This document shows positions 8,053-63,707 of a stretch of DNA of 64,000 bases, one piece after another. The position numbers were made by a program, and so were the translations under genes. The notes beneath the pieces were generated by a model. The model worked only from the letters and a program-made list of their open reading frames with translations, made no database searches and had not been told where the DNA came from. Origin of the DNA: an uncultured Thermoplasmata archaeon (GTDB taxonomy: Archaea; Thermoplasmatota; Thermoplasmata; RBG-16-68-12); the NCBI GenBank assembly GCA_963768855.1, contig CAVYJM010000011.1:320001-384000 (forward strand). Reading direction: 5' to 3'. Position 1 is the first letter of the stretch. Each line of letters opens with the position of its first letter.

Positions 8053-8805
8053 TCACGCGGACGGGGCGCCGGTCGAGGCGAGCCCCTTGAGGATCGCGTC
8101 TGCGCTCAGGAGCGCGGGCGAGATGATGTGGTCCGCCTTGACCTCCCGCATCTTCTCCAGGTTCTCCTGGGAGGACACGGTCGCGAAGACGGGGACGCGG
8201 CTGGCGATCTTCTTCGAGGTGAGGCAGATGAACGCGTTCTCCGAGTCGATCTCGGACGCGGCGATCACCGCGCGGCTCTCGGCGACGCCGGCCTTCCGCA
8301 GGACCTCCATGGTCTCGTAGTCCCCCTGGATCGCCGCCGCGCCGCGCTCCGTCAGCTCATCCACGGTCGCCTTGTCCTTGACGAGCACGAGGACCTGGTC
8401 CTTCGGGAGGTTGTTCAGGAGCACGCGCGCGGTGTCCGAATATCCGCAGAGCACGATGTGGTTCTTCATGCGACTCGCCTTCCGGACCCGGTGGCCCTCC
8501 CAGTATGCGGTCAGGGCGGCCGGGCCGAGGATCTGGGTCATGAACGAGAGGATGACGCCCACCGCAAGGAGGGCGACGACGATGCCGACGATCTCGCCGG
8601 CGAACGTGTTCGGGTTCGCGGCGCCGATGAGGGTCATCACCATGACGACGAAGTACAGGCTGTTCGCCAGGGACTGGTTGTCCACGAGGGCGAAGACGAT
8701 CGTCCCGACGACCACGATGGCCAGGATTGCGACCAGGTGGGAGAGCGTCTTCGAGCGGAGCTCGCTCGGGACGTAGGAGAGGGGGCTGAGCCGCCGCCGG
8801 TTCAT
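8053..8805 (-). CDS. 2-TM ion channel subunit with RCK/TrkA-N domain, atypical filter
   Basis: TM, pore helix (SLYFVVMVMTLIGAANP), TM; then RCK: NHIVLCGYSDTA, AIQGDY, LRKAGV..SRAVI, D.EN.FI. Confidence 0.85.
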   Translation of the reverse strand: MNRRRLSPLSYVPSELRSKTLSHLVAILAIVVVGTIVFALVDNQSLANSLYFVVMVMTLIGAANPNTFAGEIVGIVVALLAVGVILSFMTQILGPAALTAYWEGHRVRKASRMKNHIVLCGYSDTARVLLNNLPKDQVLVLVKDKATVDELTERGAAAIQGDYETMEVLRKAGVAESRAVIAASEIDSENAFICLTSKKIASRVPVFATVSSQENLEKMREVKADHIISPALLSADAILKGLASTGAPSA

Positions 8806-8860
8806 CGGCGCCCCCGAAGGGCCGGCGCGTACATAGCCTTGACCGGACCGGACGCCCGGT

Positions 8861-43469: not shown

Positions 43470-44306
43470 ATGAAGATCCTGATCGCGGACGACGATGAGC
43501 TGCTGCGGGAGCTCTTGGCGGAGTTCCTTCGGGACCACGGCCACTCGGTCGATCTCGCGAACGATGGGACCGAGGCCCTCGAACGTCTGCGCACAGGCTC
43601 GTACGAGGTTGCGTTCCTCGACTACGCCATGCCTGGCATGTCCGGAATGGAGGTCATCCGCGCCGCGCGCGAGGCGGTTCCGCAAACGGCCTGCGTGATG
43701 ATGACCGGGCACACGAGCGTCACGACGGCCGTGGAGGCGATCAAGTCCGGAGCGAGTGACTTCGTCGCAAAGCCGCTCGAACCAGAGGCGATCGACCGCG
43801 TCCTGGAGAGCGTGAAGACGGCCACCCGAGCGCGGGAGGCGGCCGGGGTACGCTCCCGCGCGAGCGGTCTCTCCCGCCAGCCCGAGATTCGCGCCGCCTT
43901 CCTCACCGACCACGCAGGCCTCCTCATCGCCTCCCGGGTGGACCCGGAAGAGGGCATGGTGGACGGGGATCTCTTCAGCGCGACGCTCGACGTCATCCAG
44001 AACTTCATGCGCACTTCCTTCCCGGTGCTCCGCGGCCGCTCCCTGTCGGCCATCCACCAGGGCGACTGCACCCTCGTGCTCGAGCCCGGCGACCAGGCGC
44101 TCCTCACGGTCCTCGTCCAGGGGCGGGAGACCGAGTCCCTACGGCGTCGGATGCGGAAGGTCCTGCGGGACTTCGAGGTCCAGAACGAAGGGCGACTCCA
44201 AGCCGGTCTCGTCCACACGGACGCGGTCCGTGGAGCGGAGGAGCTGATGTCGAGGATCATGGTCAGCGGCGATTCGCACTCCGCCCGGCCACCGCGCGCC
44301 CCCTAG
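43470..44306 (+). CDS. Response regulator: REC domain + roadblock/longin-like domain
   Basis: KILIADDD, FLDYAMPGMSG, MTGH, DFVAKP; C-terminal DGDLFSATLDVIQNFMRTSFP domain. Confidence 0.9.
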   Translation: MKILIADDDELLRELLAEFLRDHGHSVDLANDGTEALERLRTGSYEVAFLDYAMPGMSGMEVIRAAREAVPQTACVMMTGHTSVTTAVEAIKSGASDFVAKPLEPEAIDRVLESVKTATRAREAAGVRSRASGLSRQPEIRAAFLTDHAGLLIASRVDPEEGMVDGDLFSATLDVIQNFMRTSFPVLRGRSLSAIHQGDCTLVLEPGDQALLTVLVQGRETESLRRRMRKVLRDFEVQNEGRLQAGLVHTDAVRGAEELMSRIMVSGDSHSARPPRAP

Positions 44307-45301
44307 AGGCGAAGGTGGAGAGCCGCGAGGACCTCTTCGATCGGGTTCAGGATCGTCGTCGTGGCCCCGCCGGCGAAGAGCAGGCCGACGGCCCGGTTGG
44401 CGTCGTCGAGGATGAGGGATCCGCTGTCGCCGCCTCGGGACAGGATGTCGCCCACGACCTGGCGCCGGAAGAGGGCGGTCTTCCCGCCGTAGTCGACTTC
44501 GACGGAGGCGTCCAGCGCCGTGATCCGACCCCGCGTCAACCCGGTCGTGCGCCCGCTCTTCTTGACCCGCGTGCCGATTTCCGCTTGGGCGGTCCCCGAG
44601 ACCCGCCCCACTTCGAGGATGTCCGGGGCCACGAGGTCCGTTGCGAGCGGCCGGGCCAAGGCCGCATCGACCACGTTCGTGTTCGCGGATGGCAGGCGGC
44701 GCACCCCGAGCCCGATGGGCGCCAGGAGTGGTCCGAGCGCCCGTTCCAGGAGGCGTCCCAGTCCGCCCAGATCCTGCTCGCGAAACTGGATCGGGACGAA
44801 CTCGACGAGCTCCGCGATCGCATCCTGCGGACGCCCTCCGTCGTACGGACCGGGCTGAAGGATTCGGTCGCCCACCTTGGCCTCGTTGCTGTTTGCGAGC
44901 ACGTGGTTGTTCGAGAGGATGACCGCCTCGCCCGACGTCCGCCGCGCGAGGACGCCCAGCGTCCCTGCGGTGACCCGCTCATGGGCGATGCTCACGCCGC
45001 CCGGCGCGGGCCGGACCTTGGCGGTGTGACTCACCGCGAGCGTCTCGAGGAGGGGCAGGGCCCGGAACCGCCCGGTCTCCACGACGTCCGTCCGGATGCC
45101 GTCGAGGGCCTTCGGCACGAGGTCCCTCCGCCGCAGGCGGTCCTCGTCCTCCTTATGGTCCACATAGACGACGACGCACGGCTCGTCGCTCTCGCGACCT
45201 CCGGTGACCTTGCGGCCCACCGCCACGCCGACCACGTTCGCGCGGTCGAAGAGCTCCGCCTCGTACGCGGCCTTCGCCTCGCGTGCCCCGTCGAAGGCCA
45301 T
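44303..45301 (-). CDS. Trypsin-like (Nal1-type) serine protease without signal peptide
   Basis: N-terminal NVVGVAVG.K...VVYV..K prodomain; AGTLG, LSNNHV (His), VDAAL (Asp), K.GRTTGLT.G, GDSGS (Ser). Confidence 0.88.
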   Translation of the reverse strand: MAFDGAREAKAAYEAELFDRANVVGVAVGRKVTGGRESDEPCVVVYVDHKEDEDRLRRRDLVPKALDGIRTDVVETGRFRALPLLETLAVSHTAKVRPAPGGVSIAHERVTAGTLGVLARRTSGEAVILSNNHVLANSNEAKVGDRILQPGPYDGGRPQDAIAELVEFVPIQFREQDLGGLGRLLERALGPLLAPIGLGVRRLPSANTNVVDAALARPLATDLVAPDILEVGRVSGTAQAEIGTRVKKSGRTTGLTRGRITALDASVEVDYGGKTALFRRQVVGDILSRGGDSGSLILDDANRAVGLLFAGGATTTILNPIEEVLAALHLRL

Positions 45302-47903: not shown

Positions 47904-49202
47904 TCAGCGGTGCAGCGCCATCGTCGCGGCGCGTGAGCGACCGACGGACGCGATGTCGACGCGAACCTTGAGCGCCGACTCCAGGTACGCCAGGTAGCGG
48001 CGCACCGGGGGCGGGAGCGCCCGCGAGCCCTTCTTCGCGATTCGGATCCAATCATCCTCAGGGAGTTCGGGCCAGCCCTTGAAGTCGCGGTACACGGGTT
48101 CGGCCTCCGCGAGGACCTTCGTCGAGGCGGGGAACTCCTTCACGGTCGTCCCGTGGTGGCGGTACGCCGTGCAGACCCGGATCCGGTCGAGACCGCCGAG
48201 CACGTCGAGCTTGGTCACCGCGAGACCCGTGAGCCCGTTCACCCGCACGGCCGCGCGGAGCATGACGAGGTCGATCCATCCGACCCGCCGCGGCCGATGC
48301 GTCGTCGTCCCGTACTCGCCTCCCCCGGTCTCTCGGAGATGGGTGGCCACGTCATCCTGTTGTTCCGTGGGAAAGGGCCCCGCGCCGACGCGGGAGGTGA
48401 ACGCCTTCGCGACGCCGAGGATCGTGTCGAGGTATCGGGGGGAGACGCCCGCGCCGGTCGCCGCCGCCCCCGCGGTACAGTTGCTCGAGGTGCCGTACGG
48501 GTAGATGCCGTGGTCGATGCAGAGGAGCGTCCCCTGGGCGCCCTCGAAGAGGACCCGCTTGCGCCGCTTCAGCATCCCGTCCAGGAGCACGGAGGTGTCC
48601 GTGACGAAGGGCGCGAGCCTCTTGCCGTACAGCGCGTACTCCGTGTAGATCGCCTCGAGGTCGAGGACGTCCGTGCCGCCGTAGGCCTGGATGAGCCGCT
48701 GCTTGATCGGGACGACGAGGGAGAGCCTCTCGCGCAGGGCGTCCGGATCCACGAGGTCGCACATCCGCAGGCCCCACTTGCCCACCTTGTCCTCGAACAC
48801 GGGCGCGATCCCGCGGCGCGTGCTCCCCGCGGCGAGGCTGCCCTTGAGGCCCTCCTCGAGCCCGTCGAGGATCTTGTGGTACGGCATGACGACGTGCGCG
48901 CGGTCGGAGATGCGGAGGTTCTTCGCCGGATGCCCGCGCGCCTCGACCTCGTCGATCTCCGCGAGGAGCTGCCCCGGTTCCACGACGACGCCGCCCGCGA
49001 TCACGTTCAGGGTGCGGGGTCGCAGGATCCCGGACGGCATGAGGTGGAACGCGTAGAGCTCGTCGCCCACCTGGACCGTGTGCCCGGCGTTCGCTCCGCC
49101 CTGAAAGCGAACCACGACGTCGGCCCGCTCCCCGAGGAAGTCGATGATCTTCCCCTTGCCTTCGTCCCCGAATTGGCAGCCCAAGACTACCGTGGCGGGC
49201 AT
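47904..49202 (-). CDS. purA: Adenylosuccinate synthetase
   Basis: GCQFGDEGKGK, GGANAGHT, EGAQGTLL.IDHG.YPY, EYGTTT.RPRR, TKLDVL. Confidence 0.97.
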   Translation of the reverse strand: MPATVVLGCQFGDEGKGKIIDFLGERADVVVRFQGGANAGHTVQVGDELYAFHLMPSGILRPRTLNVIAGGVVVEPGQLLAEIDEVEARGHPAKNLRISDRAHVVMPYHKILDGLEEGLKGSLAAGSTRRGIAPVFEDKVGKWGLRMCDLVDPDALRERLSLVVPIKQRLIQAYGGTDVLDLEAIYTEYALYGKRLAPFVTDTSVLLDGMLKRRKRVLFEGAQGTLLCIDHGIYPYGTSSNCTAGAAATGAGVSPRYLDTILGVAKAFTSRVGAGPFPTEQQDDVATHLRETGGGEYGTTTHRPRRVGWIDLVMLRAAVRVNGLTGLAVTKLDVLGGLDRIRVCTAYRHHGTTVKEFPASTKVLAEAEPVYRDFKGWPELPEDDWIRIAKKGSRALPPPVRRYLAYLESALKVRVDIASVGRSRAATMALHR

Positions 49203-49309
49203 GGCCGTCCTCGCCGAGAGGATGACCTGGGAGATAAGGAGCTTTCGCCCTCCATCGCCCGGCCGAGCGCCGCGGGTGAAAACGGAACATACTCCGGTCC
49301 GCCTACCGA

Positions 49310-50098
49310 ATGTATTTATCCGCAGCAACCGTTCGCCGTCCCACACCGCTCGGGCCGGGGGGTGCGGGTTCCACGTCGGAGTACATACCACTGGACAGTC
49401 GAGTGCCCACGCGCGTCGCCGGCCTCGATGACCGGCTCGGTGGCGGCATCCCCCGGGGTCACATCGTCCTCGTCGCCGGCCCGCCCGGATCGCTCAAGTC
49501 CACGTTCGCGTACCGGATCCTGTACCAGGAAGCGAAGGAGCACGGCGCCTCCTGCCTCTATCTCTCGATGGAGCAGAGCCGCGCCTCCCTCATCGCGCAG
49601 ATGACCTCCCTGGGGATGGACCCGGAGCAGGTCAAGGGCGTCCACATCATCGACGTCCGCGCCCTCCGCAAGGAGATCGAGGACCTCCGGGAACAGCCGC
49701 GGTGGCTCCTCGGCCTGCGCCGCCAGCTCGGCCGCTACAAGGAGGAGATGGGCTGCGACCTCCTCGCGATCGACAGCCTCGACGCGCTCTACGCGCTCAC
49801 GCCGATGGAGAACCCGCGCAACGAAGTGTTCCATTTCTTCGAGGAGTTGCGGGAGCTCCAGGCAACGACCTTCCTCGTCTCGGAGATGGGCCGCGACGAC
49901 GTGCGCCTCTCGCACTACGGCGTCGAGGAGTTCCTCGCGGACACGATCGTCCACCTGCGCCTCCGGGAGATCGACATCGGGATGAGCACCTCCGTCCGCC
50001 GATACATCGGCGTGGTGAAGATGCGCGGCGTGGACCACGACCTCGACTACTATCCGTTGCTCATTGAGGACGGCGGCTTCGAGATCGTGTCGGAGTGA
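49310..50098 (+). CDS. KaiC/RAD55-like RecA-superfamily ATPase (start uncertain, possibly GTG 49403)
   Basis: LDDRLGGGIPRG, GPPGSLKST, YLSMEQ, AIDSL, EEFLADTIV.L, VVKMRG. Confidence 0.88.
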   Translation: MYLSAATVRRPTPLGPGGAGSTSEYIPLDSRVPTRVAGLDDRLGGGIPRGHIVLVAGPPGSLKSTFAYRILYQEAKEHGASCLYLSMEQSRASLIAQMTSLGMDPEQVKGVHIIDVRALRKEIEDLREQPRWLLGLRRQLGRYKEEMGCDLLAIDSLDALYALTPMENPRNEVFHFFEELRELQATTFLVSEMGRDDVRLSHYGVEEFLADTIVHLRLREIDIGMSTSVRRYIGVVKMRGVDHDLDYYPLLIEDGGFEIVSE

Positions 50099-50119
50099 GA
50101 CCACGCGCGGGGTGGGACC

Positions 50120-51871
50120 GTGAACCTCCTCGGTGCGGCTCTCTCCCTGGCGGCCTTGGGCGTCAGCGCGTTCCTCGCGGTGTACGTCCTCGGGATGCAC
50201 CCGCGCTCGTTGCCGAGCCGCGCCTTCTTCGCCCTCATGATGACGTTCGTGTGGTGGGACGCCTGCGAGGCGGTCGAGCGGGCGCTGCCCGCCGGGACCA
50301 CGCCGTCCGCGGCCTTCCCGTGGACTCAGGGCGTGTGGCTCGGGATCAGCGCGGTGCCCGCCGCCCTGATGCAGCTCGCCCTCGTGTACCCGGAGCGGCG
50401 ACCCTGGTTCCGGCGCGAGTACCTCCCGCTGATCTACGCCCCCGTGGTCGGGTGGGCCTACCTGATCTTCGGGACCCGCCATCTGATCGCCGGTGTGGCG
50501 GAGGGGCCCCTCGGTCCCGGCGCAGTCGTCGGGGATAGCTACCTCCCCCTCGCTTCGGTCTACGCGGCCTGGTTCTACCTCAGCGTCGTCCTGTTCGCCG
50601 TGAACTGGTGGCGTCTGCGCGGGAGCAACCTCCGCCAGATGCAGGGCGTCGTCGTCCTCGGCCTGCTGGTCGGGTCCGTCCCCGCCGGCGTGACGGAGAT
50701 CTTCTGGCCCCTGATCGACGGATTCTCGGTCCGCCTGGGGCTGGGGTCCCTCTATACGCTCGTCTGGTCCATCTTCCTCGCGTTCGCCATCGCGCGCTAC
50801 CGCTACCTGGTCATCGAGCCCGTGACGGAGTCGCTCGGCGCGACGCGTGCCCGCCATCCGCTCTCCCGCGGGTTCAACTACCTCGTTCTGGAGCCGGGCC
50901 GGGCCGCGGGGATGGGGGCGTTCCGCGAGATCGTCTCGACGACGCCGGGGTTGTGCGTGACGGGCCTCGCGCCGGCTCGGATCGCCGAGCGGTTCGGGCT
51001 CGAGCGGACGCCCGTCCTGTGGATCACGACCGTCTCGGGCGAGGGGCGCACGGTCCGCCCGCAGGGGCTCGACTTCGAGCTCGTGCACACGGTCCTGAAG
51101 TTCCAGCGGGAGAACCCGGGGACCGCGATCCTCCTCGACGATCTGGACTACCTGGCCGCGGTGGACGGGTTCGAGGCGGTCGCCCGCTTCCTGAAGCGTG
51201 TCGCGAATCAGGCGAGTTCCTCGAGCGGCACGCTCATCGTGACGGCGGGCCACGGTACGTTCACGGCGGAGCAGGTCGCGGTGCTCGGCGGTTGCGTCGA
51301 CCATGTCCTCGACATCCCCGAGACCTCGAACGGGACGCTCGCCCCTTCGCGGGGTCACGCCCTCCTCTTCGTGCCGCAACAGGACGTCGGGGGCGTCCTC
51401 GCCCTCGTCGGCGCCAGCCGCGGCCTGATCGTGACCACGGAGCACCCCGCGAAGGCCCGCCGCCGGCTCGGAGAAGGCTTCGACATCCTCTGGATCACGG
51501 AGCATCCGGAGGCAGGGATCCTCTGCGCGCGACCGACGGCGCTCGACACGGAAGCCCGCCGCGCCATCAGCAATCACCTTTCCGCCCATCCGGGATCGGC
51601 CGTCGTCCTAGCGGGGCTCGAGCAGCTGTCCCTCTTCGCGGACTTCCCCGCCCTCCTGTCCTTCGTGAAGGACACGGTCGACGCGGCGTCCCTCCGGGGA
51701 AGCCAGGTCATCGCCGCGGTCAGTCCGAACGGGCTCCCCGCCCGGGAGGTCGCGATGCTCGCCCGCCGCTTGGATGTTCCCGCGGGCTCTTTTGTCAGGG
51801 GTTCTCCGGCTGGAGGGCTGTCCACAGCCGTTCCTGGAAGTCGAACTCCGATTCGAGGACCCGTTTCATGA
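50120..51871 (+). CDS. 7TM (HisKA_7TM-like) sensor fused to two DUF835 domains
   Basis: Seven hydrophobic helices ending FAIARYRYL; two DUF835-like units (GLCVT..P, VLWIT, ILLDDLDYL...GF..V..F; ILWIT, VVLAGLEQL). Confidence 0.85.
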   Translation: MNLLGAALSLAALGVSAFLAVYVLGMHPRSLPSRAFFALMMTFVWWDACEAVERALPAGTTPSAAFPWTQGVWLGISAVPAALMQLALVYPERRPWFRREYLPLIYAPVVGWAYLIFGTRHLIAGVAEGPLGPGAVVGDSYLPLASVYAAWFYLSVVLFAVNWWRLRGSNLRQMQGVVVLGLLVGSVPAGVTEIFWPLIDGFSVRLGLGSLYTLVWSIFLAFAIARYRYLVIEPVTESLGATRARHPLSRGFNYLVLEPGRAAGMGAFREIVSTTPGLCVTGLAPARIAERFGLERTPVLWITTVSGEGRTVRPQGLDFELVHTVLKFQRENPGTAILLDDLDYLAAVDGFEAVARFLKRVANQASSSSGTLIVTAGHGTFTAEQVAVLGGCVDHVLDIPETSNGTLAPSRGHALLFVPQQDVGGVLALVGASRGLIVTTEHPAKARRRLGEGFDILWITEHPEAGILCARPTALDTEARRAISNHLSAHPGSAVVLAGLEQLSLFADFPALLSFVKDTVDAASLRGSQVIAAVSPNGLPAREVAMLARRLDVPAGSFVRGSPAGGLSTAVPGSRTPIRGPVS

Positions 51872-52022
51872 AGAGGACGATCTGACCCTGCGGGTCGAGG
51901 CCGTTCCGGGCGCAGTACTCGCGGAAGCCGTGGAGGACCTCCCCCTCGACGCGGATGTTGTACTGCACCTTGGCTTTCCTCGGCGGGGGCGATCCTCGGG
52001 GCGCCACGGCCCTCCGAATCAC
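51795..52022 (-). CDS. Small ribbon-helix-helix (CopG-like) DNA-binding protein
   Basis: GTG 52022 after GAGG; KVQYNIRVEGEVLHGFREYCARNGLDPQGQIVLFMKRVL has a beta-alpha-alpha pattern. Confidence 0.65.
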   Translation of the reverse strand: MIRRAVAPRGSPPPRKAKVQYNIRVEGEVLHGFREYCARNGLDPQGQIVLFMKRVLESEFDFQERLWTALQPENP

Positions 52023-52030
52023 ACCGCCTC

Positions 52031-52099
52031 TATATCTACATTCTGTAGCATTTGCTATCTTTTTGTTCAAATCGTAGCCATTAAGTAAGTGATAATCAC
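52031..52099. promoter_or_regulatory. AT-rich divergent promoter region with three inverted repeats
   Basis: ctaca-ttc-tgtag (52036-52048), tagca-tt-tgcta (52046-52057), gtgat-a-atcac (52089-52099); TATA-like tatat and ttaag. Confidence 0.7.
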
Positions 52100-52134
52100 A
52101 TCTGGGAACGAGTGGGAGAGGAGGAGACCATCGG

Positions 52135-53196
52135 ATGACCGAGGCGACCCCCGCCCGGAACCGGCCGGCGACCCCCGAGGAACCAGGACTGGAACCCCCT
52201 GATTCGACGGTATCCGGCTCCACCGACGCCGACTTGCAGGCGGACCTGCTTGAGTCGCTCGTCGAGTCGGCGGACTACGTGGACGTCCGGAAACCACTCC
52301 CGGCCCGGAGTGGAGGGGGCCTGCTACTGGCCACCCCCGAGGCGATTCGGGACGCCTTCGTCACCGCATGGGAGGGCCTCTCCCATTCTCTCCATCTGGA
52401 GATCAGCGCGGCGCGCGCGCTCGACGGCGTGAGGGACCTCGTGCTCTACGACATCCCGGATGGGACCCGCAGCACGCTCTCCGTGCCCGCGGCGACGGAC
52501 GTCGAGACGGACGCCGGGCTGTATTGCCTCGCGCTCGTGCACACGCTCGCGTCGCTCGGAGCGGCGAGGACCGTCCTGCTCACGCACACGGTCTACAATC
52601 GCGAGCGCGGGCCCGAGGACACGAAGCGCTTCCTCGAGATCATGGCCCACGGCGTCGAACCCTTCCGCGGGTACACCCGGCGGCACAAGATCCGCGTGCA
52701 CCTCCACGGGATTCACGAGGGCTACGAACTCGGCCCCCTCCTCTCGAAGGCCTTCCCCGTCCCTGCGGCCCCCAAGTTCGATGCCCATTTCCTCCTGGAG
52801 TACGAGGAGGAATGGTTCCTGACCCCGCAGGGTCGCGCCCTGCTGGAGATGCTCCCGGACATCGACGTCGTCGTGCGCCACACGAAGCTCCAGGTGAGCG
52901 GCGGCTGGATCCCGATGAAGATGCGCAAGTCCGCGTACGTGTACTCCCAGAACGGGAGCCTGAACTCGAACTGGTCCTACGACGAGTACGCCTCGATGGT
53001 CGCCGTGGCCTACCTGGCCAAGGTCCTGCACTCCGGCGAGGCCCTGAGCAAGAAGTACGTCTCGATCGACGAGATCAAGGAGCGCTACCAGCAGCGGGAG
53101 ATGCGGCTCCAGACACGGGTCGTGCGGCTCAGGGAGAAACCGCGGAAGCTCTTCGTCGTCGGCTCCGCGACCGGCCTCATCCAGGTCTACGCCTGA
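52135..53196 (+). CDS. Divergent cis-prenyltransferase-fold protein (Rv3378c-like)
   Basis: YDIPDGTRS (cf. DGNRR/DGTRR), LGA..TVLLTHTVYNRERG, IRVHLHG, LPDIDVVVR, SAYVY, C-terminal KPRKLFVVG. Confidence 0.6.
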   Translation: MTEATPARNRPATPEEPGLEPPDSTVSGSTDADLQADLLESLVESADYVDVRKPLPARSGGGLLLATPEAIRDAFVTAWEGLSHSLHLEISAARALDGVRDLVLYDIPDGTRSTLSVPAATDVETDAGLYCLALVHTLASLGAARTVLLTHTVYNRERGPEDTKRFLEIMAHGVEPFRGYTRRHKIRVHLHGIHEGYELGPLLSKAFPVPAAPKFDAHFLLEYEEEWFLTPQGRALLEMLPDIDVVVRHTKLQVSGGWIPMKMRKSAYVYSQNGSLNSNWSYDEYASMVAVAYLAKVLHSGEALSKKYVSIDEIKERYQQREMRLQTRVVRLREKPRKLFVVGSATGLIQVYA

Positions 53197-53207
53197 GGCT
53201 GGCGCGG

Positions 53208-54326
53208 TCACGAGGCGGCCAGCAGGGCAGTGAGCAGGTCGTCGACGCCCCGGGCGTCTTTCGCCATGCCCCGCCAGTTGCCCAGCGCCTCCGCGTTCTC
53301 CTCTTCGAATTTCTCGACGGCCTCGATGACCAGCCGACGGAGCTGGTCGTTCTCCTCCCCGTCGAGGACGAGGGTGAGGCAGGCATGCCGTCCGCGCTCC
53401 ATGAGGAGCGTGTAGTTGCCATGGCGGATGGACTTGAGCCACTTCCCTCGCAGGGTCGGGAACGACGTGCGCATGAAGTTCGAGATCACGTCGAGCGTCG
53501 CGCTGAACGAGTCCGCGTCGATCATGCGTTCTTCCGGCTGGATTCTTGACCCGATCAGCGTGCCGTCGCTGAAGGTGAGGAAGGCGCCCTTCACATCGTA
53601 GGTCGAAGCCTTCTTCCGCCGGAGGGCGTCGTTCAGCCTCCGGCTGGCGGACGGGCTCGTCGCAAAGAAGATCAGGAATCCGGGGACGGCGAGAAAGGTC
53701 GAGAACAACGGAGGCTGGCCCGGGGAGTCCTCGAGGCCGAGCACCGCGTTCGAGAACGTGCCCGCCAGGAGGGCGGCGACGAAGCCAACGAGGATCGCCT
53801 CGATCCGATGCGCGAGTTTGGGACTCTGGCCGTGGACTTCGAAGACCGTCCGCCCGATTTGGGCCAGAGCGACCAGCCAGCACGCGGCAACAAACAGGAG
53901 CCACGGAAGATACCAATCCAGGTTGTACTGGGGGACCCGCGGGACCGGGCCCGGCGGGAGGGGCGGGAATCCGGCGAACATGTGTGTCGGGAACGAGACG
54001 ATGAAGAACGCGGCGGGGACGAAGACCAGGAGCGACACACGGCGGAACCGGCCGTGGAACGCCATCCCATAGAGGAGCAGGAACACGCTCCCCACGGTGA
54101 GGCAGGTCAGGGAGACGCTGGCCTCGAGCGTCAGGTCCGCACCTGGGGGCATGTTGAAGAAGATCGCATCGCCCAGGGCGTACCCTCCCGTCAGCGTGCA
54201 GAGGAGGACGAAGAACAACTCGGTCCACGTCCGGTACCGCTCCTGATACGTGAGGTACCCCGCCAGGGAGAACCAGATCCCCGCACTGACCAGGGGGGCC
54301 CAGAACAGGAAGTCGTACGCGGACAT
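53208..54326 (-). CDS. 7TM sensor-like protein fused to roadblock/longin-like domain (paralog 1)
   Basis: YRTWTELFF motif, 7 TM; C-terminal AFL...DGTLIGS...DADSFSATLDVISNFMRTSFP...GEENDQLRR. Confidence 0.85.
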   Translation of the reverse strand: MSAYDFLFWAPLVSAGIWFSLAGYLTYQERYRTWTELFFVLLCTLTGGYALGDAIFFNMPPGADLTLEASVSLTCLTVGSVFLLLYGMAFHGRFRRVSLLVFVPAAFFIVSFPTHMFAGFPPLPPGPVPRVPQYNLDWYLPWLLFVAACWLVALAQIGRTVFEVHGQSPKLAHRIEAILVGFVAALLAGTFSNAVLGLEDSPGQPPLFSTFLAVPGFLIFFATSPSASRRLNDALRRKKASTYDVKGAFLTFSDGTLIGSRIQPEERMIDADSFSATLDVISNFMRTSFPTLRGKWLKSIRHGNYTLLMERGRHACLTLVLDGEENDQLRRLVIEAVEKFEEENAEALGNWRGMAKDARGVDDLLTALLAAS

Positions 54327-54387
54327 GCGGGTTCCTCGATTCTTCAGTCCCCGTTGTGTCTTAAGCATTTAGTGTTCGAGTTCGGCC

Positions 54388-55527
54388 TCATGTCTGCTCG
54401 AGGAGGGAGGTGAGCAGCCCGTCCGTCCCGATCGCCTCGGACGGCATGCCTCTCCAGTCCGCGAGGACGGGCTGGTTGTCCCGCTCGTACCCCAGGAGGA
54501 GATCGCGCATGTGCCGGCGCAACTGGTCGTTCTCCTCTCCTTGTAGGATCACGGTCAGGTAGGCGTACCGGCCGCGTTCCATGACGAGCGTGTAGTCCCC
54601 GTGTTTGATCGCGCTCAGCGAACCGCGCAGGGTCGGGAAGGAGGTGCGCATGAAGTTCTGGATCACGTCGAGCGTCGCGCTGAACAGGTCCTGGTCGATG
54701 ACCTTCTCCCCGGGTCGGACCTTCGCGCCGATCAGGGTGCCGTCCGTGAAGATCACGAAGGCCGCCTTGATGTTGTAGCGGCTTGCCTTCCACCGCCGCA
54801 CCGCAACGGAGAACCGCTCCGTGCTCAGAGGCGACAGGGTCACGACCGAGACGATTCCCGGGAGGACGAGCCCGGTGGAGAAGAGCGGGAGGAACTGGTA
54901 ATTCCCGAGCCCGCGCGTCACGTTCGTCAGCCCTCCGAGGGCCAGGGCGAGGAGGGTCGAGACGAGCAGGCCGAGCATCCGGCGGCGGAGCTTCGTCGTC
55001 TGGTCCGCCACCTCCCGATAGGTTCGCAGGAGGAAGTACGCGGCGAGGCCGGCGTAGGCCACCACGCCCACCACCCAAGTGATGAACACGGTCTTGTCCC
55101 AGGAGCCGAGCCAGGGCGGCCCGAACAGCGCGCCGGGCGACGAGTCGAGGGGCTGGATCATGCCCAGGTTCGGGACGAGACCCGCCCACACGAGCGCGAT
55201 GAGGCCGACCGCGGGCACGAACGCGAGCAGGTACCCGGTCCGCATCCTCGTGTAGAAGACGAGGGAGAAGAGGAAGATGAAGCAGACACTGAGGGTGAGG
55301 ACGCTGAAGCCAAGCAGGGCGGCGGTTCTGGCTTGCATCTGGTCCGGCGAAGTGAAGAAGAGGACATCGGCAAAGGCGTACGCCCCGACGAAAATGCAGC
55401 CGGCGAGGAAGAACACCTCGGTCCACGTACGATAGCGGTCGCGATAGACCTGGTAGAGGGCGAGGCCCCACCACACGCCGACCGTGGCGAGGGGCAACCA
55501 CTGCTGGCCGGGGATGGGGAGGGCCAT
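54388..55527 (-). CDS. 7TM sensor-like protein fused to roadblock/longin-like domain (paralog 2)
   Basis: YRTWTEVFF motif, 7 TM; C-terminal DQDLFSATLDVIQNFMRTSFP...GEENDQLRR. Confidence 0.87.
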   Translation of the reverse strand: MALPIPGQQWLPLATVGVWWGLALYQVYRDRYRTWTEVFFLAGCIFVGAYAFADVLFFTSPDQMQARTAALLGFSVLTLSVCFIFLFSLVFYTRMRTGYLLAFVPAVGLIALVWAGLVPNLGMIQPLDSSPGALFGPPWLGSWDKTVFITWVVGVVAYAGLAAYFLLRTYREVADQTTKLRRRMLGLLVSTLLALALGGLTNVTRGLGNYQFLPLFSTGLVLPGIVSVVTLSPLSTERFSVAVRRWKASRYNIKAAFVIFTDGTLIGAKVRPGEKVIDQDLFSATLDVIQNFMRTSFPTLRGSLSAIKHGDYTLVMERGRYAYLTVILQGEENDQLRRHMRDLLLGYERDNQPVLADWRGMPSEAIGTDGLLTSLLEQT

Positions 55528-55637
55528 GGAAACCAAGGGGTAGTTTCCCAACCTTCGCAAGGTATGTTAAAGCCTTCGACGTGATTTTCCGTCGCAAGAA
55601 GAGCCCGGGGCGCGCAACGGCTAAGGCGGTGGGTCCG

Positions 55638-56665
55638 ATGCCCCGTCCACGAAGGTCCGGATCGCGGGCGCGGGTCCCGCAGGCCTCAGCGCGGCCTGCG
55701 TCCTCGCCGAGGGGGGAGCTGAGGTGGAGGTCTTCGATCGAGGACCCGCCCTCGGGTCGAAAGAGGCCGATTTCTCCGCAGGTCTGCGGAACTACGCCGG
55801 CCGGGACGCCCTCGAGGAACTTGCGTCCTACGGCGTGCCGGTCCGTCCGTTCGCCACCGCGCAGAAAACGATCCGGCATTCGCCGCGGTTCGCGAACGTG
55901 CTCCATGGCCCCTCCTACTTCATCCTGGCCCGCGGCGCGGGGCCGACCACGGTCGAGCGCCAGCTCTTCGACCGGGCCGTGCGGGCGGGAGCTCGGGTGC
56001 GGTTCGGGACGGCGAAGGATCCTCAGGACGTGGACATCGTGGCCGCGGGACGGCCCACCGGTCCGCCGTCCCTCCTCGGCGTGGGGTTCACGTTCTCGCG
56101 GGAGGGGAGCCCGATGGACGACACGACGCTCTACGCCCTCCTCGATAACTCGATCGCGCCCGCCGGCTACTTCGCCCTCGCCCCGGGGCCTGAGGCTTGC
56201 ACGCTCTACGCCGTCTCCTGGACGGATCTGGATCTGGAGAGCATGCGGTCGCGCGTCGAGGCCTCGCTCCAGATTCCCTGGGTGAGGGAGCTCGTCGGAT
56301 CGAGCCGCCGGCTTCAGCGGATCGAGTGCGGCGCCTACTTCGCGCGGGACCCGATCGCCGATGCGGTGGCCCCGTCGGGCGCGCTCCGGGTCGGAGAGGC
56401 CGCCGGCTTCCTCGATGCGATCGGCGGCTATGGCGTCCGGTACGCGTTGATCACGGGAGCCCTCGCGGCGAAGTCGGTCCTCGACCGGTCCGACTATCCT
56501 GCCCTCCTGCGGCAGGCGTTCGGCACTGAGTTCGAGGAAGCCTTCGCGTTCAGGCAGCAGTTGAACCGCGCGACGAACGAGGACATGGACCGCCTCGTGG
56601 CGTCCATGGGGCCGGAGATGGATCTGGCCGCGTACCAACAGCACCGGTCCTCCCGACTCCTGTGA
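55638..56665 (+). CDS. Geranylgeranyl-reductase-like FAD oxidoreductase; 5' end lacks an in-frame start (possible frameshift)
   Basis: The frame of ORF 55724 extends upstream to KVRIAGAGPAGLSAA (GxGxxG) but meets TAA at 55622 without a start; ATG 55638 is out of frame. Also IAPAGY and GEAAGFLD..GYGVRYA..TG.LAA. Confidence 0.8.
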
Positions 56666-56706
56666 CCCGCGCAAGCTTATTCTGGGGATCCCACCATCGT
56701 GCCGCG

Positions 56707-57726
56707 ATGGCCGATTCGGTCCGCGTCGCAGGGGCCGGCCTTGGAGGTCTGACCGCGGCACTCGTGCTCGCGCGAGCGGGGCGGACGGTCGAGGTCTTCG
56801 ACCCGAAGACGGCGCTGCTCCCCAGCTCGGGCCCGCACACGGAAGGCATCCGGAACTACCGCAAGTTGGACGCTCTCGAGGAACTGCGGTCCGTGGGCTT
56901 CGATTTTTCGCCGTTCTCGACCGTCCAGCGGACGATTCGCGCCGCGCCGCACGCCCGAACCGAGCTCCTCGGCCCCGCGCACTACCTGTTCCAGCGGGGC
57001 CGTGAACCCGAATCCGTCGATCAGGTCCTCTTCCGTCGGGCCCAGGAGGCCGGGGTCCGGTTCCACTTCGGCGCCTCCCTCGGCGCCGATGATGCAGACA
57101 TCGTCGCGACCGGTCCTCCGAAGGACGAGACCCAGATCCTCGGCGCGGGCTACACGTTCTCGGCCACGGGTAGCTCCCTGACGCGCGACGTCGCATGCGC
57201 CCTCTTCGACAACGAGGTCGCACCAGCCGGATACCTGGCCATCACGCCCGGCATCGACTACCACTCGATCTACAGCGTCTCCTGGTCCGAGTTCGACTAC
57301 GCGCGGCTCCTCGCTCGCGTCCACAAGGCGTTCGAGGTCCCCTGGGTCAAGGCGATTCTCGGGACGAGCACCTGGGTCGGCAAGATCCACGGCCGCGCAC
57401 ATTTCGTCCGAGATCCGATCGCGGACGCGGAGCGGGGCGGGGTGCTGTATGTCGGCGAGGCCGGAGGCTTCCAGGACGCCGTTGCGGGCTTCGGCTTCCG
57501 GTACGCGGCGATGACGGGCGCGCTCGCCGCACGGTCCATCCTGGAGGGCCGGGACTATCGTGGACTCCTGCGCCAGGCCTTCGGCAACGAGTTCGTGGAG
57601 TCCTGGGTCTTCCGGGAGAAGCTGAACGCCGCGACGAACGAGGACTATGACCGGATGTTCGCGGCCCTTGGCCCCGAGATCACCCTCGAGGCGTACGTCG
57701 CCCAGCGTGGCTCCCGCGGGTTCTGA
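56707..57726 (+). CDS. Geranylgeranyl-reductase-like FAD oxidoreductase (paralog 2)
   Basis: MADSVRVAGAGLGGL, VAPAGY, VGEAGGFQD..GFGFRYA.MTG.LAA; tandem paralog of the upstream gene. Confidence 0.88.
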   Translation: MADSVRVAGAGLGGLTAALVLARAGRTVEVFDPKTALLPSSGPHTEGIRNYRKLDALEELRSVGFDFSPFSTVQRTIRAAPHARTELLGPAHYLFQRGREPESVDQVLFRRAQEAGVRFHFGASLGADDADIVATGPPKDETQILGAGYTFSATGSSLTRDVACALFDNEVAPAGYLAITPGIDYHSIYSVSWSEFDYARLLARVHKAFEVPWVKAILGTSTWVGKIHGRAHFVRDPIADAERGGVLYVGEAGGFQDAVAGFGFRYAAMTGALAARSILEGRDYRGLLRQAFGNEFVESWVFREKLNAATNEDYDRMFAALGPEITLEAYVAQRGSRGF

Positions 57727-57728
57727 AC

Positions 57729-59489
57729 TCATGCGCCGCCGGGCTTCACGGCCTTGAGCTGTCCGCGGTACATCTCGAGCAGCTCTTTCTGGGAGGTCGC
57801 GTCCTCGGGCTTCTTGTCGTCGCGCCACTTGCCGGTGAACCGGGGGAACCGGACGGCAAGGCCCGCGCCCTTGCGGACCGCATCGCGGGCGCACGTGTGG
57901 ACCGGGCTGACCGTGATCTCCGCACCCTTGACCTCGAGGACGAACCGCGGCTCGAACCAGACGTCGGGTGTGAGCGCGGAATCCACGCGGGCGTGCCGGT
58001 GCGGGACGACCGCGTCCTGGAATCGGTCCTTCAAGCCGAACAGGGTCTCGTCGTCGAAGCCCGTGCCGAGCTTGCAGGTCGTGCGGAACACGTCCGCCTG
58101 GTCATCGTAGGCGGCCATGAGCAACGCACCGTACGTGCCGGCGCGCTTCCCCCGCCCCGCGAACGCGCCGACCGCCACGAGATCGATCGTGTCGCTCAGC
58201 TCCGTGCTGTATTCCTTCTTGAACTTGATCCACTGAAAGCCGCGGGCGCCCGCGTCGTACGTCGAGGAGAGGGCCTTCGCCATGAGGCCCTCGCACCCCG
58301 CCTGGAGGGCCTCGTCGAAGAACGCCTCCGCGGCCTTGACGTCCGCGGTGACCTTGTACGTCGCGCGCCGCACGCGCTCGTTCTCCTTCAGGATCCCGTC
58401 CAGGGCCTTCCTCCGCTCGACATACGTACGAATCGTGAGGTCCTCTCCCTCCAGGAAGAGGCAGTCGAAGGTGAACAGGGTCACGGGGAACTCCTGCGAC
58501 ATCCGGTCCACGTCCGTCTTCCGTCCGCGACGGCGGCTGACCTCCTGGAACGGGAGGAACTCGCCCGTGTTTGCGTCGACGGGGACCGCCTCGCCCTCGA
58601 CGATCGCCTCTTTCGCGCGGATCGCGGTCCGCAGCCCTTCGACAATCTCGGGGAACTGCCCCGTGATGTTTTCGAGCTCCCGCGAGAAGAGCCGGATCTT
58701 GTCGTTCGAGATGTGCGCCTGGCACCGCAGGCCGTCGTACTTGTACTCGAGCGCGGGCTCCCCCATCCTCTCCATGATTTCCTGCAACGTGGGCAGCCGC
58801 TCCGCGAGCATGGAGCGGATTGGGCGGAAGAGCTGGAGATGGATTGCATCGGCGCCCGCGAGCCCGTTCTCGGCGAGGGCGCGGGCCACCTCGCCCAGGT
58901 CGGACGACACGTTGTACGCGCGCTCGACGCGGTCCCGCTCCTCCTTCGTCGCGAAGGTGGCCGCAAGGGCGTCCACGATCGTCATGTCCGCGACCCCGAG
59001 GCGCATCTTGCCCACGACGATCCGCACGAGGTAGCGCGCCTCCTTCGGTTCCGCGTCAGTCAGGAGCTCCGCGAGGAGCCGCAGCTTCTTCTCCTGCGAA
59101 CCGGATCCACCGGTGGTCGCGATCTCCTTCAGGTTCTCGTAGACCTTCGCGATGGTCAGCGGCTCGGAGGTGAGCGAGGTCTGCTTCTTCCCGCGGAGGC
59201 GCTCCTCTGCCACGAGCCCGAGATCGCCGGAGGCCTTCCAGGCCTTCTCGATGTCCTCGTCCCGGTCCCCGGTGGCCTGAGCGATTGCGCGGATCGCGAG
59301 CTTCTCCGCGACGCCGAGCTCGATCCCTGCGTAGCCCGGATAGACCCGGCCCTGCGTGAGGTAGACGACCGGTTCCAGATCGGGCTTGGGCACCTGCCTG
59401 AACAGGCTGACGAGGAGGTCGGTCATCTCGAGGCGCTTCGTCGTGGCCTCGAGCTTCTCGTACGCGTCGACCAGGGTCGCGTACTGCAT
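57729..59489 (-). CDS. lig: ATP-dependent DNA ligase (archaeal)
   Basis: MLAERL, EYKYDGLR.Q.H (adenylation Lys), EGLMAK, W.KFK, DTIDL, RFPRF. Confidence 0.98.
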   Translation of the reverse strand: MQYATLVDAYEKLEATTKRLEMTDLLVSLFRQVPKPDLEPVVYLTQGRVYPGYAGIELGVAEKLAIRAIAQATGDRDEDIEKAWKASGDLGLVAEERLRGKKQTSLTSEPLTIAKVYENLKEIATTGGSGSQEKKLRLLAELLTDAEPKEARYLVRIVVGKMRLGVADMTIVDALAATFATKEERDRVERAYNVSSDLGEVARALAENGLAGADAIHLQLFRPIRSMLAERLPTLQEIMERMGEPALEYKYDGLRCQAHISNDKIRLFSRELENITGQFPEIVEGLRTAIRAKEAIVEGEAVPVDANTGEFLPFQEVSRRRGRKTDVDRMSQEFPVTLFTFDCLFLEGEDLTIRTYVERRKALDGILKENERVRRATYKVTADVKAAEAFFDEALQAGCEGLMAKALSSTYDAGARGFQWIKFKKEYSTELSDTIDLVAVGAFAGRGKRAGTYGALLMAAYDDQADVFRTTCKLGTGFDDETLFGLKDRFQDAVVPHRHARVDSALTPDVWFEPRFVLEVKGAEITVSPVHTCARDAVRKGAGLAVRFPRFTGKWRDDKKPEDATSQKELLEMYRGQLKAVKPGGA

Positions 59490-61697: not shown

Positions 61698-63707
61698 TCA
61701 GGGACCCGCGACCTCGGTCGGCAGGAGGAGGGAGAACGAGGCGCCCCGCCCCGGCTCGGACGCCAGTTCGATCCGCCCGCCGTGGGCCTCGGCGACGGCC
61801 TTCACGAAGAGCAGTCCGAGCCCGACCCCTTCGCCGTGCGGCTTCGTCGTGAAGAACGGCTGGAAGATCCGGTCCCGGTCCTGCGGCGAGATCCCCTTCC
61901 CCGTGTCCCGCACCGTGACGCACGCCCACTCCCCCTCGCGCCGCAGGGACACCGTCACGGTCCCCTTGTCCGTCGCCTGGTACGCGTTCTTGATCAGGTT
62001 GCCGACCGCCTGGGAGATCTTCAGCGCGTCGACGGTCATCGGGAGCGGCGCGTCGCCGACGTCGAGGTCAAGCGCCACGGCCGGTTTCCGGTAGGCGGCC
62101 ACTTGCTCCGCGGCGGCCCGAAGCAGGGTCGCGAGGTCCGCCTCCTGCCGGCGGATCTCCGTGGACCGGGTGAAGGTCATGATTTCCTCGATGATGCGGG
62201 CCGCGAGGCGCCGCTGGGCGTCGATCCGGTCGAGGCGCTCCCTCGTCGCATCCTCCTGGGTCTGGCGCCGGATGCTCGCGGTCAGCAGGGAGATGTTCGT
62301 CAGGGGCGTATTCAGCTCGTGGGCCACGTACGACGCGGTGCGGCCGATCGACGCGAGGCGCTCCGTCTCGAGGAGGGCCCGTTGAGCCTCCCGAAGGCTC
62401 GTGACGTCCACGAGGGTCGTGAGGATCGTCGGCTCGTCGGCGAGGGTCATCGGCTCGACGAACACGAGCGCGGTCCACGTCCGGCCCGACCTCGTCCGGA
62501 ACCGTTCCTCGACGCCGCGAACGCTCTCGCCCCGTCGCACGGGCTCCAAGATCCGGTCGCGCTGCGCCGCGTCGGACCAGATTTCGAGTTCGGGCGACGG
62601 TCGTCCGAGGACCTCGTACGGGGCGTACTCGCAGGCGCGGAGGAAGCTCGCGTTCGCCTCGATCACCCTGCCGTCCGCGAGGCGCGTGACCGCAGCGGGC
62701 ACCGGGCTGTTGTGGAAAGCCTTCGCGAACCGCTCCTCGGCCTTCCTCCGCTCGCTCTCGAGCCGCTCCGACTCGAGGAACTGTCCCATCCGATCCCCCA
62801 GGTCGGCCATGAGCTCGAGGAGTTGGGGATCCGGCTCGCGGGTGCTCCGGCTGAAGAAGACCATCACGCCGAGGACCCGCGGTCCGCGCCCGGTGATCGG
62901 GAAGGAGAGTCCCTGCCGCAGGCCGAGGTCCGCGCCGGATTGGCCGCGGGCGAAGTGCGTCCGGGGTGTCAGCTCCTCGAGCCACTCGGGGCGTCCGGTC
63001 GCCCAGGTGGTCCCCGGGATCCCGACCCCGCGCGGGACGGCGACGGTCCGGCTCGCGGCCTCGAACTCGGCGGAAGGGAACCCCGGGACGTGCCAGGCCG
63101 CCTGCCACCGCAGGCTCGTGCCCTCGGCGGACGCGATCCACAGTTCCCCGTACTCCCAGCTCGCTTCCTCGCAGACCGCCTGGAGGAGGCGCGGGATTGC
63201 CTCCCGAGCCGGGGCCGAGTCGTTCAGGACCCGGGTCACCGCGAACTCGGTCCGGAGGCGGCGCTCGAGCCGCAGCCGCTCCGTGATGTCGTGGCACAGC
63301 ACGAGGCGCGCGCGGTGGTCGTCGAAGTCGATCTCGCTCGCCAGGACCTCGACGTCGATGATGCTCCCGTCGCGCTTGAGATGCCTCCAGATCCCGATCG
63401 TCGTGGTGCCGCTGTCGAGCCGCCTGACCTCGTCCATGAGCGCGGGGATGTCCTCGGGCGGCCGGATGTCCTTGATCGTCATCCGGAGGAACTCGTTCCT
63501 CGAGTAGCCGTAGTGGGTGACCGCCGCGTCGTTGACGGCGAGGAAGTAGAGGGACTTGACATCGAACACCCACATCGGGAGCGGGTTCTTCTCGAACAGC
63601 AGGCGGTACGACTCCCTGATGAAGTGCATCCGACCGTTCCGTGGGCTCTCGGCTTCCCGCCGTTGGCTCGGGAACTCATCGGATGGTATGGGCTCGTTGC
63701 CGGGCAT
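61698..63707 (-). CDS. PAS-GAF-PAS sensor histidine kinase (start may be ATG 63629)
   Basis: Two PAS domains, GAF (GVGIPG..W), H-box VAHELNTPL, N-box NLIKNA, G1 DTGKG, FTTK, G2 GVGLGL. Confidence 0.95.
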   Translation of the reverse strand: MPGNEPIPSDEFPSQRREAESPRNGRMHFIRESYRLLFEKNPLPMWVFDVKSLYFLAVNDAAVTHYGYSRNEFLRMTIKDIRPPEDIPALMDEVRRLDSGTTTIGIWRHLKRDGSIIDVEVLASEIDFDDHRARLVLCHDITERLRLERRLRTEFAVTRVLNDSAPAREAIPRLLQAVCEEASWEYGELWIASAEGTSLRWQAAWHVPGFPSAEFEAASRTVAVPRGVGIPGTTWATGRPEWLEELTPRTHFARGQSGADLGLRQGLSFPITGRGPRVLGVMVFFSRSTREPDPQLLELMADLGDRMGQFLESERLESERRKAEERFAKAFHNSPVPAAVTRLADGRVIEANASFLRACEYAPYEVLGRPSPELEIWSDAAQRDRILEPVRRGESVRGVEERFRTRSGRTWTALVFVEPMTLADEPTILTTLVDVTSLREAQRALLETERLASIGRTASYVAHELNTPLTNISLLTASIRRQTQEDATRERLDRIDAQRRLAARIIEEIMTFTRSTEIRRQEADLATLLRAAAEQVAAYRKPAVALDLDVGDAPLPMTVDALKISQAVGNLIKNAYQATDKGTVTVSLRREGEWACVTVRDTGKGISPQDRDRIFQPFFTTKPHGEGVGLGLLFVKAVAEAHGGRIELASEPGRGASFSLLLPTEVAGP

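Follow-up and report, generated by a model that had tools for sequence, protein, structure and literature searches.

A candidate isoprenoid synthesis-and-sensing module in uncultured Thermoplasmatota, with a cis-prenyltransferase-fold protein beside HisKA_7TM-type sensors

The Locus and Its Genes

In a stretch of 64,000 nucleotides from an uncultured Thermoplasmata archaeon (positions 320,001 to 384,000 of contig CAVYJM010000011.1, assembly GCA_963768855.1; hereafter the window), a block of eight genes occupies positions 49310–57726, between purA and lig. The block encodes a KaiC-like ATPase, a seven-transmembrane (7TM) receptor with two DUF835 domains, a small ribbon-helix-helix (RHH)-type protein, a 353-residue protein with a cis-prenyltransferase (cis-PT) fold that we call X353, two 7TM receptors ending in a longin-like domain (TM_A and TM_B) and two flavoproteins (FlavA and FlavB) related to geranylgeranyl reductases (GGR). 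A first-pass annotation of the window had described such a contiguous block and proposed that it makes and perceives an isoprenoid signal. We found all eight genes where it had placed them (table 1), and its domain assignments were borne out, those of the RHH and longin-like domains on weak scores. The true reading frames were chosen by the G+C content of third positions. Judged by the source names attached to close homologs, the genome belongs with uncultured, high-GC Thermoplasmata of soils and sediments. In the window G+C amounts to 65–70%, and a mobile island was rejected as a reading of the block, which has no tRNA genes and no break in composition.

Table 1. Genes and features of the block and of its surroundings in the window
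Feature	Position	Strand	Evidence or remark
REC + longin-like output domain	43470–44306	+	PF00072 E 2e-28; tblastn with TM_B C-terminal domain
purA	47904–49391	−	PF00709 E 2e-157
KaiC-like ATPase, single-domain	49310–50098	+	PF06745 E 6e-46
HisKA_7TM–DUF835–DUF835 receptor	50120–51871	+	PF16927 38.3 bits; PF05763 107.6 bits, two stretches
RHH-type protein, ~75 aa	51795–52022	−	GTG start at 52022; divergent from X353
AT-rich putative divergent promoter/operator	52023–52134		8 aligned orthologous intergenic regions
X353, 353 aa	52135–53196	+	cis-PT fold; profile-level homology
TM_A, 7TM–longin-like receptor	53208–54368	−	hhalign to HisKA_7TM set; TM_B paralog
TM_B, 7TM–longin-like receptor	54388–55560	−	AlphaFold2 model; Foldseek; start probably ATG 55527
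FlavA, GGR-related flavoprotein	55724–56665 (in-frame from 55625)	+	sub-threshold NCBIfam GGR matches
FlavB, GGR-related flavoprotein binding flavin adenine dinucleotide (FAD)	56662–57726	+	TIGR02032 E 9e-11, below cut-off
lig, ATP-dependent ligase	57729–59489	−	TIGR00574 E 3e-153

X353, a Protein with a Cis-Prenyltransferase Fold

X353 is a soluble protein with no transmembrane (TM) segment. Its AlphaFold2 (AF2) model has a predicted local distance difference test score (pLDDT) of 76, with residues 1–62 predicted to be disordered. At E ≤ 0.001, Foldseek matched this model to 108 structures; the 50 of them that were listed were cis-PTs without exception, with MM_0014 and MA1831, two non-canonical enzymes of archaea, at the top; heteromeric cis-PT complexes also occur among the structural matches. 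Alignment to cis-PTs with VIA-align produced Z scores of 16–17 and a root-mean-square deviation of ~2.8 Å over ~200 residues. In an exhaustive VIA search of 48,161 representatives, the best 12 chains all belonged to the cis-PT superfamily (Z 16.6–8.4), and the chain ranked 13th was an unrelated protein with a Z of 5.9. A reading of X353 as specifically Rv3378c-like was rejected: the best cis-PT scored a Z of 16.6 and Rv3378c one of 13.8, with no sequence match at E ≤ 10.

At the sequence level, a profile of 33 family members (alignment A2) matched the undecaprenyl pyrophosphate synthase (UPPS) of Escherichia coli at E 8e-5, and hhalign of the family to the canonical UppS of the source genome itself gave E 8e-6. 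Such a broad family profile was needed, as searches of PDB sequences with X353 alone or with a profile of close orthologs returned no match. X353 has no Pfam or NCBIfam match and does not reach the gathering score of PF01255; the best of its distant family members comes to E 3e-4 and 21 bits against that model, whose cut-off is 27. Foldseek, VIA and profile homology thus agree on the cis-PT fold on which the first-pass annotation had staked its reading. Judged from these comparisons, X353 founds a small new family of the cis-PT fold that has no Pfam match; in a set of 1.84 billion proteins it amounts to 60 clusters at the 50% identity level.

The family is marked by the motifs YDIPDGTRS, THTxYNRxRG, RHTKxxxSGGW, YSQNG and SNW. 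Residues D109, G110 and R112 are invariant in the 33 sequences and directly follow strand 103–107 of the model, a position from which D109 and R112 appear equivalent to D26 and R30 in the DGNxR loop of UPPS. Also conserved across the 33 members are T152, N155, R158 and R248. THTxYNRxRG aligns to FSSENWxRP, the S/T..N.xR motif after strand 2, and R248 corresponds to the first arginine of R-T-x-G-E-x-R-x-S, the motif for the diphosphate of isopentenyl diphosphate (IPP). Two canonical PF01255 genes lie elsewhere in the source genome, suggesting that X353 is an additional, specialised enzyme.

The first 62 residues of X353 (window 52135–52320) form an N-terminal extension with a PEEPGLEPPDS motif conserved in the window's genus. 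This extension, which may be a docking motif, is absent from the orthologs of two other families (f7 and f29).

Conservation of the Gene Neighborhood

All genomes compared are metagenome-assembled genomes (MAGs) that are related to one another. In the window's order, 41 genomes (source included) were searched; 24 of them, from three of nine genera, carry X353. Within the order, where these loci represent three families, the gene always lies between purA and lig and always adjoins a gene for a 7TM–longin protein, and this sensor is found in exactly the same three genera. The KaiC, 7TM–DUF835 and RHH genes are present in two families of the order and absent from the third; families f1 and f7 share the synteny of the KaiC-like gene. 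In the window's genus, the loci include a flavoprotein gene and often also one for a haloacid dehalogenase (HAD) phosphatase; an NAD-dependent epimerase/dehydratase is encoded near lig in some of them and in several loci of family f29.

Family f29 is a distant, low-GC family of Thermoplasmatota in which X353 orthologs are 35–41% identical to that of the window and have a patchy distribution (15 of 108 genomes, 11 of 40 genera). In all 13 f29 loci with flanking sequence, the neighbor of X353 is a histidine kinase of the HisKA_7TM type, after which a REC–PAS–DUF835 regulator usually comes. The X353 gene is co-directional there with genes for a flavoprotein, a HAD phosphatase, B12-binding radical S-adenosylmethionine (SAM) enzymes and a short-chain dehydrogenase/reductase (SDR), and one locus also holds KaiC. 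The linked HAD enzymes resemble nucleotidases. The kinase gives way to a direct fusion of 7TM and DUF835 in some f29 loci and likewise in a MAG labelled Halobacteriota. No small open reading frame (ORF) that could encode a ComX-like precursor or that of a ribosomally synthesised and post-translationally modified peptide (RiPP) was conserved between genomes in 17 f29 loci.

On a wider scale, the module was present in 16 of 401 genomes sampled from the phylum, and 185,579 species genomes yielded 59 X353 loci, of which 54 were informative. A HisKA_7TM-type receptor is encoded within ~3 kb of X353 in 52 of these 54, the gene linkage across genomes that would be expected of a quorum-sensing pair of synthase and receptor. 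Since HisKA_7TM occurs only one to three times per genome, adjacency by chance can be put at roughly 1% per lineage. Moreover, in a tree of the sensor domains, the 7TM domains linked to X353 in f29 form one clade (support 94/99) within which kinase and DUF835 outputs are intermixed, which indicates that it is the sensor, and not the output, that stays with X353. The constant element of the module is therefore the pair of X353 and a HisKA_7TM sensor, whereas the output swaps between kinase, DUF835 and longin-like domains. Altogether, five module types (X353, the GGR-like reductase, HAD, the HisKA_7TM sensor and DUF835/KaiC) recur across three or more architectures and in contexts that differ. 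That the genes of the block would keep company in other genomes, as the first-pass annotation had supposed, holds even in a distant lineage with another gene order and other receptor outputs.

The X353 family is confined almost entirely to uncultured Thermoplasmatota. In a Methanocellales MAG (locus L115, 6947–7872), the homolog is broken into two adjacent ORFs, one of 124 aa and one of 187 aa, probably as a copy in decay. A member of a distant subfamily is divergent from a UbiA prenyltransferase gene in one Thermoplasmatota family (L046 of genome G191, 8084–9850), and the same subfamily occurs in Candidatus Altarchaeum (L118–L120), with no 7TM receptors nearby.

Receptors and the KaiC-like ATPase

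The receptor that carries two DUF835 domains, as previously annotated, exceeds the PF16927 cut-off of 28.6 bits and is the sole Pfam-level HisKA_7TM protein in the source genome. DUF835, an inactivated KaiC-like domain, has 13 matches there, which points to a large repertoire of KaiC/DUF835-type signaling.

TM_A and TM_B are paralogs (42% identical), and each combines seven TM helices with a domain of the order beta-beta-alpha-beta-beta-beta-alpha, an order that fits the longin-like domain attributed to them in the first pass. In Foldseek, a TM_B model (AF2, pLDDT 81) matched G-protein-coupled receptor-like 7TM bundles at E ~1e-3; its longin matches, the zeta-COP and AP sigma subunits, stood at E ~4e-3 with a TM-score of ~0.5. 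Neither protein, the longin-like domain included, has a Pfam or NCBIfam match, and a BLASTP comparison of TM_B with the 7TM–DUF835 protein was likewise negative. Nevertheless, hhalign of the TM_A/TM_B family alignment (A3) to a HisKA_7TM set (A6) gave a probability of 93.7% (E 2e-7), and PF16927 is present in some homologs of the two receptors. By this profile–profile comparison alone, their sensor part is homologous to HisKA_7TM.

At least 14 copies of the longin-like domain were found in the source genome. The one joined to REC in the window is 59% identical to that of TM_B, and a 539-aa ORF on another contig (C3:19036–19785, +) has DUF835 directly followed by a longin-like domain, a fusion that ties the two output modules together.

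The KaiC-like ATPase has a variant Walker A motif, GPPGS(L/M)KS(S/T), at residues 55–65 (window 49470–49500), in which leucine or methionine takes the place of the glycine before the lysine of the canonical GxxxxGK[ST]. The variant is present in all nine copies compared, that is, the window's own (GPPGSLKS) and eight orthologs, whereas the KaiC near the f29 cluster has a canonical GPPGSGKT. According to the summary in PMC5847659, Makarova et al. (2017) proposed an archaeal signaling network of KaiC and DUF835 (iKaiC) proteins; REC–PAS–PAS–DUF835 regulators are recorded there for Thermoplasmata as well. The KaiC-like ATPase of the block is the proposed relay partner of DUF835.

Flavoproteins

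The two tandem flavoproteins are paralogs (47% identical), and their GGR kinship, claimed in the first pass, is seen at the level of profiles and below the TIGR02032 cut-off: FlavB scores 42 bits and an f29 ortholog 59.6 bits, the curated cut-off being 158.8. A family profile (A5) matched the digeranylgeranylglycerophospholipid reductase of Thermoplasma acidophilum (3oz2) at E 7e-9 over residues 154–321, well beyond the Rossmann motif, and the archaeal protein 3atq/4opt at E 2e-5. The FAD-binding GxGxxG motif reads VRVAGAGLGG in FlavB and VRIAGAGPAG in FlavA. On this profile evidence, the flavoproteins of the island define a new GGR-related family that Pfam does not recognize.

FlavB is the ortholog of the single copy present in relatives (81% identical to that of locus L064), and FlavA is a divergent extra copy with at most 48% identity to all orthologs. 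The FlavA frame opens after a stop at ~55622 and takes in the motif (KVRIAGAGPAG), but the first canonical start, GTG 55724, lies downstream of the latter, and three-frame translation disclosed no ATG, GTG or TTG ahead of it in that frame. An ATG at ~55647 is one base out of frame and beside a CCCC run, suggesting a 1-nt indel that is either an assembly error or a real frameshift.

The RHH-Type Protein and Its Divergent Intergenic Region

An RHH gene divergent from X353 had been predicted; the divergent gene is present and probably of this type. The 142-aa ORF assigned to it is not the actual protein, which has ~75 aa and a GTG start. Its orthologs (alignment A4) are 55–78% identical to the window's copy, with a mean column identity of 67%. 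Their profile gave E 2e-3 against 2kel, a 56-residue chain whose deposited name is uncharacterized protein, and a weak match (E ~0.9) to the Arc repressor. RHH clusters of the Atlas scored 0.92–0.94 for the small protein, which reached BrnA in Pfam at E 0.19 at best and had no NCBIfam match.

The alignment of the intergenic regions of RHH and X353 contains 40 invariant columns. Elements kept across the eight genomes are TTTCTAC, the GTAGCA repeats, a TATA-like box (TTAAGTAA) and a near-palindrome (TGATAATCAC); the region also has a putative ribosome-binding site (GGGAGAGGAGG). A scan with sigma-70 and terminator models found nothing, these models being bacterial and not applicable to an archaeal host.

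Other Genes of the Window

The REC–longin gene is adjoined by a gene (44303–45301, −) whose product has weak matches to the N- and C-domains of NAL1-type proteases. A cytoplasmic PAS–GAF–PAS histidine kinase is encoded at 61698–63707 (−), downstream of purB and a metallo-beta-lactamase-fold gene. A reading of the block as a defense system was rejected, there being no PADLOC match worth noting.

A Possible System for Making and Sensing an Isoprenoid

Comparative gene linkage across lineages agrees with the initial proposal that the enzymes belong with the membrane receptors, DUF835/KaiC and the regulator, and a functional tie among them is well supported by the sequence comparisons. Because the pairing of enzyme and receptor recurs in distant archaea, the island is probably an undescribed system of isoprenoid synthesis plus sensing. 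We give a probability of about 0.55 to the more specific reading in which it is a self-contained module that makes an isoprenoid lipid and senses it, its chemistry, ligand binding and signal flow being inferred.

According to this reading, X353 would be a non-canonical enzyme that takes a prenyl diphosphate as donor and transfers the prenyl group to an acceptor probably bound in a manner unlike IPP. The GGR-related flavoprotein would saturate double bonds of the product, and in relatives the HAD phosphatase would strip phosphate and the B12 radical-SAM enzymes would tailor the product further. Being hydrophobic, this product would partition into the membrane, where it, or the membrane state resulting from it, could be perceived by the HisKA_7TM-type domains of the three neighboring receptors. 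One of them would relay through its two DUF835 domains to the adjacent KaiC-like ATPase, and TM_A and TM_B through their longin/roadblock-like domain, an adaptor also used on REC and fused to DUF835. The RHH protein would bind a putative operator (GTAGCA / TGATAATCA) in the divergent promoter and set the expression of X353, closing the loop.

Several observations weigh against such a module. X353 has no equivalents of R200 and S202 (valine and glycine stand in their place, and K251 is invariant); because the motif for IPP, the second substrate, is not kept, its type of reaction is less certain, and the altered site suggests an acceptor other than IPP. The Walker A variant may mean that the KaiC ATPase is weak or inactive, and the scores behind the RHH and longin assignments are weak. 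Family f4 lacks KaiC, DUF835 and RHH, one locus of family f54 and the broken Methanocellales copy have no receptor nearby, and the distant X353 subfamily (~27% identity) is found among housekeeping genes or by UbiA, likewise without receptors. Furthermore, since the MAGs are related, the locus counts overstate the independent events, which come to about three architectures.

Adjacency of sensor and enzyme would be equally expected if the sensor regulated the enzymes in response to an unrelated cue. The 7TM proteins might thus sense temperature, pH, redox or envelope stress and modulate X353 and the tailoring enzymes, whose product would then be an adaptive membrane lipid and not a ligand. Sensor genes commonly adjoin the enzymes they control, as in DesK/DesR–des, and both the PAS domains of the f29 kinases, which make other inputs possible, and the RHH protein with a conserved putative operator on the X353 promoter would fit this account. 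We consider it somewhat unlikely, given that the sensor domain is retained with X353 while outputs swap, that a single enzyme is flanked by up to three sensors of the same family, and that the module is a patchy accessory in the phylum sample and in f29, unlike core membrane homeostasis. A purely structural role for the receptors is a weaker candidate. In a complex comparable to NgBR/Nus1–DHDDS, they could anchor or regulate X353 and deliver or gate its hydrophobic substrate post-translationally, a suitable arrangement for an enzyme without a TM segment whose product is probably hydrophobic. The f4 loci, with X353 and a 7TM–longin gene only and no regulator, and the heteromeric complexes among the structural matches of X353 point the same way. 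Even so, the partner in f29 is a complete histidine kinase with its cognate response regulator, that is, a signaling device, and the X353 and TM_A genes of the window are convergent and not co-transcribed, so that we hold a complex to be quite improbable.

Less probable still is a role in carrier lipids for surface glycosylation, in which X353, the reductase, HAD and SDR would build or shorten a dolichol-type carrier of glycans and the receptors would watch over the envelope. Some archaea have GGR-family paralogs that reduce dolichol, and the NAD-dependent epimerase/dehydratase genes noted above could be accommodated; but the genome already has two canonical cis-PTs, the module is patchily distributed, X353 does not retain the IPP-site motif that chain elongation requires, and the island has no glycosyltransferases or flippases. 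Inherited synteny alone, with the genes being neighbors by descent and no functional coupling among them, would explain why the block always lies between purA and lig within the order, as vertical descent predicts. It is hardly credible in view of the same families re-assorted in other contexts and orders in f29 and in the MAG labelled Halobacteriota, and of presence and absence that match at the genus level; the recurrence of five module types in differing architectures likewise disfavors it.

Within the preferred reading of a module that makes and senses its own isoprenoid, the product could act as a signal between cells or as cell-autonomous feedback on the membrane, and both fit the same data; a DesK-like feedback on membrane lipids is one analogous form of the latter. 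A kinase-optional system of archaeal cell-to-cell signaling, in which a diffusible modified isoprenoid would reach HisKA_7TM receptors dedicated to it and enter the archaea-specific network from DUF835 to KaiC, seems to us unlikely, more so than control by an external cue. Its diffusible product may be a prenylated small molecule or nucleoside, by analogy with Rv3378c. If this were true, it would provide the first class of ligand for HisKA_7TM, the first defined input of KaiC-type signaling and an isoprenoid autoinducer in Archaea. Quorum sensing in archaea is barely characterised, and the module offers a concrete pairing of an enzyme family with a sensor family: a small new family of enzymes appears genetically locked to one family of sensor domains, whatever the output, and a tailored isoprenoid is thereby named as a candidate class of ligand for HisKA_7TM.

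Comparison with Known Systems

In the ComQXPA system of Bacillus subtilis, the gene of a prenyl-transferring enzyme stands beside those of a polytopic membrane histidine kinase and a response regulator, and the sensor perceives the prenylated product. The likeness to the island is the gene of a prenyl-transfer enzyme next to a multi-pass sensor. ComQ, however, is an all-alpha enzyme of the trans type that prenylates the ComX peptide, whereas the island enzyme has a cis-PT fold and its f29 loci have no conserved ORF for a small precursor; the relay of the island is DUF835/KaiC or longin-like, and its hosts are archaea. In the alpha-hydroxyketone systems CqsA/CqsS and LqsA/LqsS, the synthase adjoins a multi-pass kinase that binds a small hydrophobic molecule through its TM domain. 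Their protein families are unrelated to those of the island, and secretion and density dependence are demonstrated features of these systems. The membrane-fluidity circuit DesK/DesR–des brings together, in one cluster, an enzyme that modifies lipids and a multi-pass sensor of the membrane state which that enzyme changes. That system consists of one desaturase and a DNA-binding regulator and belongs to core physiology; the island combines a set of several isoprenoid enzymes with 7TM sensors and a proposed KaiC-type relay, and it occurs patchily.

As to the enzyme itself, X353 shares its fold (Z 13.8–15.8) with MM_0014, MA1831, the lavandulyl- and cyclolavandulyl-diphosphate synthases and Rv3378c. 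These non-canonical cis-PTs and X353 have in common the catalytic Asp/Arg loop and an altered second-substrate site, as expected for acceptors other than IPP. X353 differs from them in its sequence (9–18% identity, no PF01255 match), in a C-terminal beta-hairpin extension and in motifs of its own (RHTK, YSQNG).

In our searches of the literature, no account of a cis-PT-like enzyme linked with sensors of archaea came to light, in agreement with the first-pass annotation, which knew of no system with this layout. Two reviews of archaeal two-component systems catalog HisKA_7TM and REC–PAS–PAS–DUF835 proteins without ligands and link no biosynthetic enzyme to the DUF835/KaiC network. For Haloferax, a preprint (PMC12642392) connects a KaiC-type protein and a two-component system with the response to a secreted signal, whose structure it does not give. 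The archaeal KaiC/DUF835 network, as presented in PMC5847659, resembles the island in that KaiC adjoins DUF835 proteins; no input ligand or linked biosynthetic enzyme is given for it there, whereas the island ties a family of enzymes to the sensor.

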